DNA of 64,000 nt from Candidatus Limnocylindrales bacterium. Lineage in GTDB: Bacteria > Desulfobacterota > Binatia > UBA1149 > CAITLU01. The notes under the pieces are model-generated. The model was not told where the DNA came from and ran no database searches. It was given only the letters and a program-made list of their open reading frames with translations. The position numbers and the translations under genes were made by a program. Numbering within the stretch: position 1 is the first letter of the stretch; every line of letters starts with the position of its first letter. The stretch lies in assembly GCA_035626395.1 (NCBI GenBank), contig DASPNR010000002.1, positions 469,019-533,018 of the forward strand. The letters are read 5' to 3'. This document shows, piece after piece, positions 3,143 to 30,015 of the stretch.

Positions 3143-3534
3143 TGAAGAGGATCGCGGCGGATGACCGCACGACGACTCGCGCCGAACGATGCCTGGCGAC
3201 GATGCTCTCCCCCGTCGAGAAAACGGGATCCGCGCGACCGGCACCGCGCGACGGCAGGCACGCACCGACCGTCATCGCATCGGCCGCTCTCGCCCCCACG
3301 CAAGAAGTCGAGTCGTCGTTCCGAGCCGCCTTCGGCTGTTCTTGCGCGGCGCGCCGGCGACGGCGGCGGCTGAAGCCTGCTGAAGTTTCGCTTCGGCCCG
3401 CCCGGCTGTTCCTGCTCCGTTTCGCGATGTCACGTCACGGGATGATTGACGGCAACAGCGCAGCGCAGTAGCCGCGAGCACTGGAGGGGCGCGCATTTTC
3501 GGCGGGCCCGGTGGGTTTCAAGGAGGGTTTGTCC

Positions 3535-27075: not shown

Positions 27076-27112
27076 TTTTGACAGCCTCTGCCCCGCCCGT
27101 TATAAGCGCCGC

Positions 27113-27292
27113 AACCTTATTGCGAGTGGCTGAGGGATCGGGCCCTACGACGCCACAGCAACCGGCCGGCCGCAAGGCTCGGAGGCAGGTGCTAAATCCC
27201 ACATTCGGATCGAGAGGTTCGAATGGAAGATAAGGTCGAGCTCCAGCGCCTCCTGCTGAACCTCTTCCTCATCTTCCGGAAGAGGTTTTTTT
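27113..27292 (+). ncRNA. SAM-I (S-box) riboswitch with a terminator-type expression platform, in the leader of the thiF-like, cysO-like, cysM operon.
   Basis: The sequence CCUUAUUGCGAGUGGCUGAGGGAUCGGGCCCUACGACGCCACAGCAACC...GGUGCUAAAUCC...GGAUCGAGAGG matches the SAM-I consensus cores (GAGGGA, GGCCC, GAnGA, GCAACC, GGUGCnAAUUCC, GAUnAGAG). The 3' strand of P1 (GAGAGG) and the 3' half of the terminator (GGAAGAGG) compete for the same CCUCUUCC segment. Confidence 0.8.
27261..27292 (+). terminator. Rho-independent terminator of the SAM-I expression platform.
   Basis: CCTCTTCC-loop-GGAAGAGG is an 8-bp GC-rich stem followed by TTTTTTT, immediately upstream of the thiF-like start. Confidence 0.8.
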
Positions 27293-27305
27293 GTATCGCA
27301 CGGCC

Positions 27306-28010
27306 ATGACAGACACGCCGAACGTCCTGCTGATCGGAGCGGGCGCTCTCGGCTGCGCAGCGGCGCGGGCTCTGGCCGCAACGCGTACCGTCGCGCTGAC
27401 GCTCGTCGATGACGACGTCGTGGAGCTCTCGAACCTGCAGCGCCAGGTCCTCTACGACGGGGGTGACATCGGCGAGCCCAAGGTCGAGGCCGCGGCGGCA
27501 CGGCTGCGAACCGAGTTCGGCACCGCCGTCACGGCTCGCAACGAGCGCGCGGGTGCCTCCAACGCCGCAGCGCTGCTGGCCGGCGCAGACATCGTCATCG
27601 ATGCCTGCGACGACCCCGACACCAAGTTCCTGCTCAACCGCGAATGCGTCCAGGCACGCCTTCCGCTGATCTACGGCGGCGTCGCGCGCACCGGCGGCCA
27701 GTGGATGCTCATCGAGCCCGGCCGCTCGTGCTGCCTGGCGTGCGTGTTCCCGCCGCAGGGCAGCGAGAGCGCGCAGGGATGCTCGGCGATGGGCATCCTG
27801 GCGCCGGTGGCGGGCCTGGTCGGAACCATGCAGGCGTTGATGGCGCTGAGCTGGCTTGCGCGGCCGTCGCGCAGCCGCTCCGGACGCCTCTTCCTCTACG
27901 AGCTGACGCGCGCACGGCTGCGCTACGTCGATTTCCCGCGAAGCCCCGGCTGCGACTGCCGCGCGGCCGCGAGCGATCCGTGTGCCCGATCAGACAGAGG
28001 ACTTTCATGA
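27306..28010 (+). CDS. ThiF/MoeB/HesA-family E1-like sulfur-carrier adenylyltransferase.
   Basis: The Rossmann motif is LLIGAGALGCAAA. LSNLQRQ is present, with Cys pairs near the C-terminus (SCCLAC...GCDC). The ORF begins at TTG 27291 inside the U-tract. ATG at 27306 is the more likely start. Confidence 0.75.
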   Translation: MTDTPNVLLIGAGALGCAAARALAATRTVALTLVDDDVVELSNLQRQVLYDGGDIGEPKVEAAAARLRTEFGTAVTARNERAGASNAAALLAGADIVIDACDDPDTKFLLNRECVQARLPLIYGGVARTGGQWMLIEPGRSCCLACVFPPQGSESAQGCSAMGILAPVAGLVGTMQALMALSWLARPSRSRSGRLFLYELTRARLRYVDFPRSPGCDCRAAASDPCARSDRGLS

Positions 28011-28119
28011 CGGTGCGGCTCGCTCGAGAGCCGCGGGGCGGCGGCGGGCGCGGCCTAGAGTTGTTCGACCGCTGGTGCTACGCGGGGGCGAGCGCACAAG
28101 GCGCAGGAGGTAATGCAGA

Positions 28120-28422
28120 ATGTCGGTTCGGGTGAGAATTCCTACTCCCCTTCGAAAGTACACGGGCGGCAAGGACGCCGTCACGGCCGAAGGCACCTCG
28201 ATCGCTGCCGTGCTGGCCGATCTCGACAGATCGTGCCCCGGCCTCCGCGAGCGCATCTGCGAAGCGGACGGGTCGGTGCGGCGGTTCGTCAATCTGTACG
28301 TCAACGGCGACGACATCCGCTTTCTCGACAACGTCAACTCGCCGGTCAAGGACGGTGACGAGGTGAGCATCGTCCCGGCCATCGCCGGTGGCACGCCGGC
28401 GATGACGGGACGTGCGCGGTAG
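28120..28422 (+). CDS. cysO: MoaD/ThiS/CysO-family sulfur-carrier protein with a 9-residue C-terminal extension beyond the Gly-Gly.
   Basis: 100 aa. It has the beta-grasp pattern, and ...VSIVPAIAGG is followed by TPAMTGRAR*. It sits immediately upstream of cysM. Confidence 0.7.
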   Translation: MSVRVRIPTPLRKYTGGKDAVTAEGTSIAAVLADLDRSCPGLRERICEADGSVRRFVNLYVNGDDIRFLDNVNSPVKDGDEVSIVPAIAGGTPAMTGRAR

Positions 28423-28431
28423 CGCCCGATC

Positions 28432-29424
28432 GTGAGCACCTCCGCCCTTGCCGACGCACGACCGTGCCAGCCCGGCACGGGTCCGCACGGCTATCCGCGG
28501 ATCGTCGACCTGATCGGCAATACGCCGCTCGTGCAGCTCAACTGCCTGCGCGGACGCATTCCCGAAGGCGTGCGGATTTTCGGCAAGGTCGAAGGGTTCA
28601 ATCCGGGCGGATCGGTCAAGGCACGCGCAGCATGGAACATGCTGCGCCGCGGCCTCAACAGCGGTGCGCTTCGGCCCGGCAAGACCATCCTCGATTCGAC
28701 TTCGGGCAATACCGGCATCGCTCTGGCGATGATCGGCGCTGCGCTCGGCTATCCGGTGACGCTGGTGATGCCCGAGAACGTCTCGCTCGAACGAAAGCGC
28801 GTACTCGCCGCCTACGGCGCCCGCATCGTCTACTCGAGCCCGTTCGAAGGCAGCGACGGTGCGATCCTGCTGTGTCGCGAGCTGCTCGCCGAAGATCCCG
28901 ACCGCTACTTCAAGCCCGACCAGTACAACAACGAGGCCAACGCCGAGGCACACTACCTGACCACCGGCCCCGAGATCTGGCGGCAGACGCAAGGCACGGT
29001 CACGCATCTGGTCGCGACCATCGGCACCAGCGGCACCGTCATGGGCACGGGCCGCTTCCTCAAGGAACTCAACGCCGGCATCGAGGTGGTCGCCGCCGAA
29101 CCGGAAGACGCGTTTCACGGCATCGAAGGCCTCAAGCACATGGCCAGCTCGATCGTGCCGGGCATCTGGCACCGGGATCAGGTCGATCGCGTGATCGGCG
29201 TGGAGACCGAAGGCTCCTACGACATGGTCTACCACATCGCGGCCAAGGACGGTTTGCTGCTGGGCCAGTCCTCCGGCGCAGCGGTGCTGGCGGCCCTGGA
29301 GGTGGCGCAGGGCCTGAAGGAAGGTTGCATCGCCGTCATCCTGCCCGACTTCGGCGATCGCTACCTTTCGACCAATCTGTGGGTCGGCTGGCGCGATCGC
29401 CATCAGCTGGCGTCCGGCGCTTGA
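28432..29424 (+). CDS. cysM: Cysteine synthase (CysK/CysM family, PLP-dependent), probably using thiocarboxylated CysO as the sulfur donor.
   Basis: 330 aa. The PLP Lys is in GGSVKARAA, and the Gly loop is TSGNTGIALA. Full-length similarity to O-acetylserine/O-phosphoserine sulfhydrylases. Confidence 0.85.
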   Translation: MSTSALADARPCQPGTGPHGYPRIVDLIGNTPLVQLNCLRGRIPEGVRIFGKVEGFNPGGSVKARAAWNMLRRGLNSGALRPGKTILDSTSGNTGIALAMIGAALGYPVTLVMPENVSLERKRVLAAYGARIVYSSPFEGSDGAILLCRELLAEDPDRYFKPDQYNNEANAEAHYLTTGPEIWRQTQGTVTHLVATIGTSGTVMGTGRFLKELNAGIEVVAAEPEDAFHGIEGLKHMASSIVPGIWHRDQVDRVIGVETEGSYDMVYHIAAKDGLLLGQSSGAAVLAALEVAQGLKEGCIAVILPDFGDRYLSTNLWVGWRDRHQLASGA

Positions 29425-29451
29425 CGCGCCTGACCCCATGGAACGCCACGC

Positions 29452-30015
29452 ATGCCGTTGAGCAATGAGGACATCGAGCGATACGCGCGTCAGATCGTCA
29501 TTCCGGGCATAGGCGCGAGCGGACAGGAGGCGCTGCTCGCGGCAACGGTGGCGGTGGTCGGCGATGAGGCCGGCGTCGAGCAGGTCGAGCTGTATCTGCG
29601 CGCGGCCGGACCGCGGGTGGTTCGAGACATGGAGTCGGCGACTGGCGCGGTCGTGGTGGCAGGCGTGTCGTCCATCGACGACCGAACGCGCGAGCGCATC
29701 CTGCGCAGCGGCGTGCCCGCACTCTGGTACGAGCTCACCGGCCGCGGCTTCGTCTGCGGCGTGCATCCAGATGCACGCCTGGAAGAGGCGGCGACTTCGC
29801 GTCGAGCGGCCGATGACGGGACGAGGGCGACGCAGCATGTGGCGACGCGAGATGACGCAACGACGTCGACGCAGCATCGAGCCCCCGCAGACGATGACGC
29901 GGTCAGGTCGCTGCTGCACCGCGTGGCGGCGTGTGATGCCGCTGCCGCGGCGTGCGCGGTCATTCTGCGCCTGCCCTTTCGCAGCGGCCGGCAGACGGTC
30001 GATGTTCTTGGGTGA
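29452..30015 (+). CDS. Degenerate ThiF/MoeB-like protein (E1-like N-terminal region only, no intact GxGxxG).
   Basis: 187 aa. IERYARQIVIPGIGASGQEAL matches the E1 N-terminal consensus (RYSRQ..L..IG..GQ..L), but the nucleotide-binding Gly motif is replaced by VVGDEAG. The C-terminal half is low-complexity. Confidence 0.4.
   Translation: MPLSNEDIERYARQIVIPGIGASGQEALLAATVAVVGDEAGVEQVELYLRAAGPRVVRDMESATGAVVVAGVSSIDDRTRERILRSGVPALWYELTGRGFVCGVHPDARLEEAATSRRAADDGTRATQHVATRDDATTSTQHRAPADDDAVRSLLHRVAACDAAAAACAVILRLPFRSGRQTVDVLG

Follow-up and report, generated by a model that had tools for sequence, protein, structure and literature searches.

A SAM-I riboswitch upstream of a four-gene sulfur-carrier operon in a Binatia-like bacterium, and its predicted action as a transcriptional OFF switch

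The leader of a sulfur-carrier operon in an uncultivated Binatia-like bacterium carries a SAM-I riboswitch which, very probably, acts as an OFF switch on the four genes that follow it; this is the explanation that best accounts for the locus as a whole. The identity of the aptamer and the families to which the genes belong are established, as are the two folds, which exclude one another, and their conservation. The RNA itself is a textbook SAM-I OFF switch, already detected by the existing Rfam model, and what is new is the protein content of the operon rather than the RNA. Coordinates are those of the window, by which we mean the whole 64-kb stretch of DNA analysed (about 68% G+C), and the features described below lie on its forward (+) strand.

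A first-pass annotation had placed the element in the SAM-I class, and a covariance-model search bears this out. In a scan with Rfam 15, RF00162 (SAM-I) matches positions 27114-27236 with 72.7 bits (E 4.4e-15), against a gathering score of 44.4; the match is untruncated (model positions 1-108/108) and is the sole Rfam match above the gathering score in the whole window. The aptamer is a four-way junction made of P1 (27114-21/27229-36, with GAUAAGGU, 27229-36, as its true 3' strand), P2 (27126-36/27143-56), P3 (about 27157-27193) and P4, a 10-bp stem (27202-11/27216-25). A pseudoknot between the P2 loop and J3-4 (27140-27200), which lies beyond what the covariance model can represent, pairs G27140-42 with C27198-27200; three of its four pairs are present in the window, the fourth (C27139/A27201) being mismatched. 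The motifs that had been listed as conserved cores were recovered in part. GAGGGA (27132-37), GGCCC (27141-45), GCAACC (27158-63) and GGUGCUAAAUCC (27188-99) occur where they had been placed. There is no GAnGA core between GGCCC and GCAACC, the sole copies of GAAGA being at 27226 and 27279, and GAUCGAGAG (27208-16) is not a conserved core either: it belongs to the variable apical loop of P4, which is different in every relative. In the cmscan alignment, the junction and internal-loop bases GAGGGA, GCAACC, GGUGCUAA and AGAUAAG fall on positions written in upper case in the consensus, and they are invariant across the 14 leaders considered below. The kink-turn and the ligand pocket of SAM-I riboswitches are formed by these bases.

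Thirteen related loci, all on metagenomic contigs, were available for comparison (L002, L003, L082, L083, L085, L086, L088, L089, L090, L151, L211, L212 and L213). Their ThiF homologues show 45-68% identity, and the syntenic relatives are labelled Binatia, Binatota or Deltaproteobacteria. The window itself recurs unchanged within a metagenomic contig of 827 kb (ENA ERZ27257312), and the MAG to which it corresponds bears the NCBI label Candidatus Limnocylindrales. RF00162 is found directly upstream of thiF in all nine of the relatives scanned with Rfam, with 70.8-79.8 bits; L084 and L087, which duplicate the contigs L083 and L086, match as well. At the remaining 4 of the 13 loci, a pattern search found the aptamer motif with a U tract downstream of it. 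A scan of the genome collection with the ThiF alignment yielded mostly generic MoeB/ThiF genes among 80 loci; ten loci were scanned with Rfam in one batch, and only L002 and L003 from the ThiF-alignment scan had the riboswitch. A metagenome scan for GGAAGATAAGGTYGAG gave one true leader (L151) among the 120 matches listed.

The window and its 13 relatives together make an alignment of 14 leaders (A2), on which the structure formed by P1-P4 and the terminator has 92.2% of its cells paired, as compared with 36-50% in slid controls. In this structure 19 pairs change on both sides, a number reached by none of 500 shuffles. P2 never varies in the set and is thus uninformative for covariation. The pseudoknot is paired in 94.6% of cells across the family, versus 29-73% when the partner is slid, and compensatory variants (AGGG:CCCU, CGGG:CCCG and UAGG:CCUA) are found among the relatives. 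Judged by its match to the model and by this covariation, the element is a genuine but ordinary SAM-I riboswitch, the ligand of which would, by class, be SAM.

A sigma-70-like promoter can be read from the sequence upstream of P1 (27078-27106), with TTGACA at 27078-83, a 17-nt spacer and TATAAG at 27101-06; the consensus scan passed over it on account of the final G of the -10 hexamer. In 13 of 13 relatives, TTGAC(A/C)-N17-TATA(A/C)N stands at the identical distance from P1, and the predicted start of transcription is likely to be at about 27112-27114, the first base of P1. On the other side of the aptamer, folding predicts an intrinsic terminator, the OFF state (27258-27292), in which GAACCUCUUCC (27258-68) pairs with GGAAGAGGUUU (27278-88) around a 9-nt loop (27269-77), with a U7 tract at 27286-92 and the ATG of the thiF-like gene at 27306. 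The 8-bp GC hairpin followed by U7 that had been noticed at the outset is the core of this structure (CCUCUUCC, 27261-68, with GGAAGAGG, 27278-85), and its stem extends to 11 bp. A simple terminator scan overlooked the hairpin, since the loop limit of that scan is 8 nt. The same arrangement, CCUCUUCC...GGAAGAGG-U7, is present in all the relatives' leaders (full sequences, 13 loci). None of the 14 leaders departs from this core, so that most terminator pairs are uninformative; the basal pair changes from A-U to G-C, in a compensatory way, in L090 and L211.

When the transcript is folded only as far as the loop of the terminator, its minimum-free-energy structure contains an antiterminator (27226-27276), the helix of the ON state. 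The 5' side of this helix, GGAAGAUAAGGUCGAG (about 27225-40), is made of J4/1, the 3' strand of P1 and the linker, and its 3' side (about 27262-77) of the 5' arm and the loop of the terminator. The pairs are GAAGAU (27226-31) with AUCUUC (27271-76), AGG (27233-35) with CCU (27267-69) and GAG (27238-40) with CUC (27262-64), and the structure is closed by an apical hairpin, CAGCG (27244-48) with UGCUG (27254-58). An antiterminator had been proposed earlier, and the principle of that proposal stands, in that the terminator does compete with a helix using the 3' strand of P1; the bases named for it (GAGAGG) are not the right ones, as will be seen below. Each of the 14 leaders was folded up to the last base before the 3' arm of the terminator. 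Such folds retain P2-P4 and swap P1 for the antiterminator in 12 of the 14 leaders, the window included, L090 and L211 being the exceptions. As a common structure, the antiterminator is 88.5% paired, versus 40-59% when slid, and its apical hairpin shows compensatory changes. The geometry of the duplex is alike in all 14 leaders, and its energy in the window is -16.4 kcal/mol. The outer helix is formed in most relatives by GAUAAGG with CCUU(G/A)UC; in L003 it is shifted to AGGCAAGGAA with UUCCUUGCCU.

In the window, the fold with P1 and the terminator enforced has an energy of -69.8 kcal/mol, and the fold with the antiterminator (terminator 3' arm blocked) -65.5 kcal/mol. These comparable ON and OFF energies fit, in our reading, a kinetically controlled transcriptional OFF switch. 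The unconstrained fold of the full leader (-72.4 kcal/mol) does not reproduce the aptamer exactly and contains a long-range helix (27183-93/27245-54), which was not taken as functional because it coexists with the terminator. We infer SAM binding and termination in vivo, as we do the chemistry of the enzymes, and the switch would then operate as follows. A constitutive sigma-70-type promoter would start the transcript at about 27113, right at P1. With SAM bound, P1 and the P2-loop/J3-4 pseudoknot would be locked and the segment 27226-40 made unavailable, which would let the hairpin 27258-68/27278-88 and its U7 tract form and stop RNA polymerase before 27306. With SAM scarce, P1 would not hold; 27226-40 would pair with 27262-76, the terminator would be blocked by this antiterminator, and the four-gene operon would be transcribed.

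The genes placed under this control had been described as thiF-like, cysO-like and cysM-like, and matches to profiles and to structure databases confirm all three; a fourth conserved gene of the operon (29452-30015) had been left out. The first gene (27306-28010) encodes a ThiF/MoeB-family adenylyltransferase of 234 residues (Pfam PF00899, E 7e-56). It aligns only with residues 33-246 of E. coli MoeB (positions 34-247 of the NCBIfam profile) and, since the alignment starts at MoeB residue 33, it is devoid of the N-terminal RYxRQ helix. It carries no rhodanese domain: PF00899 is its sole domain, and the MoeZ model gives 89.5 against a cut-off of 647. The sequence before ATG 27306 holds no Shine-Dalgarno sequence, which makes the start codon of thiF, and any translational layer of control, uncertain. 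The second gene (28120-28422) encodes a CysO-like sulfur carrier of the ThiS/MoaD fold (100 residues, Pfam PF02597); among solved structures, its best match is M. tuberculosis CysO (3dwg_C, E 2.9e-22). A tail of nine residues, TPAMTGRAR (1-12 residues in the relatives), extends beyond the Gly-Gly of the carrier (residues 90-91), so that processing of the carrier would be required. The third gene (28432-29424) encodes a PLP enzyme of the CysM/CysK family (330 residues, Pfam PALP), which matches cysteine synthases of the PDB with an E of 1e-68. It scores 346.4 bits with TIGR01136 (cysKM), above the cut-off of 344.15, and 354.9 bits with TIGR01138 (cysM), below the cut-off of 394.2. The CysM of E. 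coli (2bhs, 232 bits) is nearer to it than that of M. tuberculosis (3dwg_A, 202 bits), and its substrate would be O-phosphoserine or O-acetylserine. The fourth gene (29452-30015), the last conserved one of the operon, encodes a reduced E1-like protein of 187 residues that corresponds to positions 4-55 of the NCBIfam MoeB profile. A consensus scan for loops of at most 8 nt finds no terminator-like site in 27300-29985. A motif search of the 64 kb for HxHx(6-9)[SP]xxD in ORFs of more than 100 residues gives no JAMM/Mec candidate, and the operons of the relatives have no Mec-type JAMM gene either. Going by these gene families, the operon would most likely make cysteine, from a carrier-protein thiocarboxylate. 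Two partners that such chemistry would call for were not found in the window: a JAMM/Mec protease (motif search) that would trim the tail of the carrier, and a rhodanese domain on ThiF, the sulfur donor in MoeZ-type E1s.

The fourth-gene protein has some features of its own. It starts with IERYARQIVIPGIGASGQ, keeping an N-terminal ERYARQ helix, and its glycine-rich nucleotide-binding loop is degenerate. It has no Pfam match, and a profile of its family matches the N-termini (about 60 residues) of Uba4, ThiF and MoeB in the PDB (E 2e-12). The best Foldseek matches of an AF2 model (pLDDT 84, pTM 0.78) are ThiF, Uba4, MoeB and the inactive subunits SAE1 and APPBP1, with a TM of about 0.5. The family has 13 members in a collection of 5.8 billion proteins, every named one being labelled hypothetical, and orthologues were located in the operons of the relatives.

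The operon is longer in the relatives. Directly after thiF, every relative with sequence past this gene (all 13) has a ThrC/MetM-like gene, whose product, of 412-419 residues, belongs to the threonine-synthase family, has an N-terminal zinc ribbon (NF006050, 313 bits; TIGR00260, 286 bits) and is 79-92% identical among the relatives. It is encoded beside the ThiS-fold carrier, as in the MetM/MetO arrangement, and may be a MetM or a ThrC by function. In the 11 loci that extend far enough, the genes that come next encode the carrier, the CysM-like enzyme, a NIL-domain protein of 79 residues and a homologue of the fourth-gene protein. The window has no ThrC/MetM-like gene (no tblastn match at E <1e-3), and at the two junctions (27900-28200 and 29380-29500) searches for what might remain of the MetM-like and NIL genes gave noise only. 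An assembly error seems unlikely, because there would be two separate clean losses with the carrier and CysM-like genes still adjacent between them. The comparison of loci shows, as far as synteny can tell, that the ancestral regulated unit also held the ThrC/MetM-like enzyme and the NIL protein, and that the lineage of the window is one that has lost both. In the relatives, the same riboswitch would also control a putative homocysteine synthase, the ThrC/MetM-like protein, and the NIL protein. Since the ancestral unit contained these two, SAM control probably evolved for the supply of homocysteine and methionine. More precisely, it is likely to have arisen for a carrier-thiocarboxylate operon making both homocysteine and cysteine, of which the window retains the CysM branch alone.

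Other explanations of the leader start from its alternative pairings and from the short reading frame within it. The antiterminator as drawn in the first-pass annotation opposes GAGAGGUU, that is GAGAGG(UU) at 27212-19, to AACCUCUU (27259-66) in the 5' arm of the terminator. The complementarity is real, amounting to 8 bp including one G-U pair (-11.4 kcal/mol). However, GAGAGG (27212-17) is not the 3' strand of P1: it belongs to P4, with bases in both the apical loop and the 3' arm, so that the pairing needs the 10-bp P4 stem to be melted. The loop of P4 is not conserved, duplexes between P4 and the terminator have no common geometry in the relatives, and the partner formed by the P1 3' strand and linker is stronger (-16.4 versus -11.4 kcal/mol), with a shape that is alike in 14 of 14 leaders; with no conserved counterpart for it, this version of the switch is highly improbable. 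It could also be that the hairpin 27258-88 hides a ribosome-binding site instead of ending transcription, since its purine-rich 3' arm, GGAAGAGG (27278-85), resembles a Shine-Dalgarno sequence and there is none other before ATG 27306. This translational riboswitch is nevertheless very unlikely: with its end 20 nt short of the ATG, GGAAGAGG is too remote to be a Shine-Dalgarno sequence, the relatives differ widely in the spacing between the U tract and the coding region of thiF, and the U7 that directly follows the hairpin in 14 of 14 leaders is the signature of an intrinsic terminator. An ORF of 28 codons (27223-27309), correctly reported at the outset together with its peptide, overlaps the P4 3' arm, the P1 3' strand, the antiterminator and the terminator, and its translation might therefore control the terminator by attenuation. 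Such a role is hardly credible for a frame that has no ribosome-binding site and no run of regulatory Met or Cys codons, and at whose start position most relatives have GUG. In the relatives, the peptide agrees just over the invariant RNA (VEDKVE; GGAAGAUAAGGUCGAG), after which frame and sequence diverge, and outside these RNA-constrained bases neither is conserved, which supports the earlier view of the ORF as incidental.

The loss of genes raises the further question of whether the riboswitch of the window is a decaying relic or has changed its ligand: SAM sensing may no longer operate there because the operon has lost the ThrC/MetM-like and NIL genes of the methionine branch that the relatives have, and the mismatched fourth pair of the pseudoknot points the same way. 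Against this, the score of the window (72.7 bits) is inside the range of the relatives (70.8-79.8), and the promoter, the terminator, the antiterminator and every conserved position of the core are intact, so that decay or a change of ligand seems very unlikely. The reading that we retain is that of a SAM-responsive transcriptional OFF switch in which the 3' strand of P1 is shared with the antiterminator.

In MoeB and ThiF, the RYxRQ helix gives an arginine to the ATP site of the partner subunit, as seen in the MoeB-MoaD structure. The catalytic ThiF of the window (27306-28010) may have lost its own arginine-finger helix, which the pseudo-E1 (29452-30015), retaining only the helix and a degenerate Rossmann core, would supply in trans. 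Such a two-subunit E1 would parallel the inactive/active subunit pairs of the eukaryotic SUMO and NEDD8 E1s, and a heterodimeric bacterial E1 would be plausible. In a broader and more speculative scheme, the E1 of the relatives would charge one carrier feeding both the MetM-like homocysteine synthase and the CysM-like cysteine synthase, and deletion of the homocysteine branch and of NIL in the lineage of the window would leave the SAM signal governing cysteine synthesis alone. Taken in its entirety, with the helix-donating subunit, the shared carrier and the deletion, this scheme is tentative and rather doubtful. Riboswitch biology gains little from the element of the window. Its modest value is as a functional label, which ties an unannotated set of Binatia genes (ThiF, ThrC/MetM-like, ThiS-fold carrier, CysM-like, NIL and reduced E1-like) to the supply of sulfur amino acids and supports the spread of thiocarboxylate-dependent homocysteine and cysteine synthesis beyond Actinobacteria. 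If confirmed, a helix-less ThiF beside a pseudo-E1 that keeps the helix would be relevant to the evolution of heterodimeric E1s.

The association of such genes with a SAM riboswitch already has a reported precedent in Streptomyces: a SAM riboswitch lies upstream of S. albulus metM according to a statement in PMC12172450, which cites Hasebe et al. 2024. An outline of the MetO/Mec/MoeZ/MetM pathway, in which S. albulus MetM makes homocysteine from O-phosphohomoserine and MetO-thiocarboxylate, is given in bioRxiv 10.1101/2024.10.14.618325. A full-text literature search found no paper joining "SAM riboswitch" and "thiocarboxylate". As the precedent is described, the riboswitch of metM-metO precedes a ThiS-fold carrier and its PLP partner, which is also the case in the window; the ThrC/MetM-like gene stands beside the carrier in the relatives, whereas the window has none. 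Unlike that of S. albulus, the operon of the window encodes a ThiF of its own together with a CysM-like enzyme and the reduced E1-like protein, to which the relatives add the NIL protein. With the mec-cysO-cysM genes of M. tuberculosis (Rv1334-1336) and MoeZ, the likeness lies in the carrier, which among solved structures is closest to CysO, and in the adjoining CysM-family gene. In contrast to M. tuberculosis, the window has no Mec/JAMM gene in the operon or, by motif search, in its 64 kb, its E1 has no rhodanese domain, its carrier bears a 9-residue tail after Gly-Gly, and its operon is under the predicted control of a SAM riboswitch. Membership of the M. tuberculosis CysO/CysM system thus appears incomplete, as far as gene content indicates. 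A protein-thiocarboxylate pathway to methionine, HcyS/HcyF/HcyD/MetY, was reportedly described in Wolinella succinogenes by Krishnamoorthy and Begley in 2011. It is said to share with the window a tailed ThiS-fold carrier, which needs trimming, and a dedicated ThiF-like enzyme, but its cluster reportedly includes a JAMM protease as well as a sulfhydrylase of the MetY type (fold type I), neither of which is in the window. As for the RNA, the leaders of B. subtilis yitJ and Thermoanaerobacter tengcongensis metF, both of the SAM-I/S-box type, have P1-P4, the cores, the pseudoknot and a terminator/antiterminator OFF switch using the P1 3' strand in common with the window. The window differs from them in its host, an uncultivated and GC-rich (about 68%) Binatia-like bacterium, in its antiterminator, whose main partner is the loop of the terminator together with the upper part of the 5' arm, and in the regulated genes, which are those of a sulfur-carrier-protein pathway.

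In all 13 related metagenomic loci that carry an orthologous thiF, the gene immediately 3' of thiF encodes a ThrC/MetM-like protein, strongly conserved (79-92% identity) and bearing a zinc ribbon at its N-terminus. In addition, a gene for a 79-residue NIL-domain protein lies 3' of the cysM-like gene in every related locus available at full length (11/11). In contrast to these loci, the window contains neither gene, and no remnants of them were found in the corresponding intervals, 28010-28120 and 29424-29452. The joint loss of the two genes suggests that the NIL protein works together with the MetM-like enzyme.

ThiF (27306-28010) has no RYxRQ (arginine-finger) helix at its N-terminus, and its alignment to MoeB is confined to residues 33-246. 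Precisely this missing element is retained, as ERYARQ, by the product of the last gene of the operon (29452-30015, annotated as hypothetical), whose E1-like fold is reduced and whose GxGxxG loop is degenerate. The two proteins may form a two-subunit bacterial E1, for which SAE1/SAE2 and APPBP1/UBA3 would be analogues. At the C-terminus of the CysO-like carrier (28387-28422), Gly-Gly occupies residues 90-91 and is followed by TPAMTGRAR; in the relatives, the tail beyond Gly-Gly is variable, ranging from 1 to 12 residues. The presence of these additional residues implies a protease that processes the tail. A motif search covering the 64-kb window and the operons of the relatives detected no ORF with a JAMM motif.

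ORF and gene callers place the start of thiF at a TTG (27291) situated within the U tract of the terminator, and in several related loci the called start is likewise a TTG in the U tract, at position 3501. The plausible start in the window is the ATG at 27306, which has no Shine-Dalgarno sequence and lies just 13 nt downstream of the end of the U tract. Unconstrained folding of the leader also predicted a helix (27183-27193/27245-27254) in which the 3' strand of P3 and J3-4 (AGG, AGGUGCU) pair with the linker (AGCGCCU, CCU). Such a helix would disrupt the aptamer and leave the terminator intact; it may reflect chance or a folding trap.

The source MAG is labelled Candidatus Limnocylindrales (Chloroflexota) at NCBI. 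All the syntenic relatives, which share the gene order ArsA-like, phosphodiesterase, YfiO/BamD-like, tyrosine phosphatase, thiF, are labelled Binatia, Binatota or Deltaproteobacteria, and the BamD-like lipoprotein points to a diderm host. The Limnocylindrales label therefore looks doubtful.
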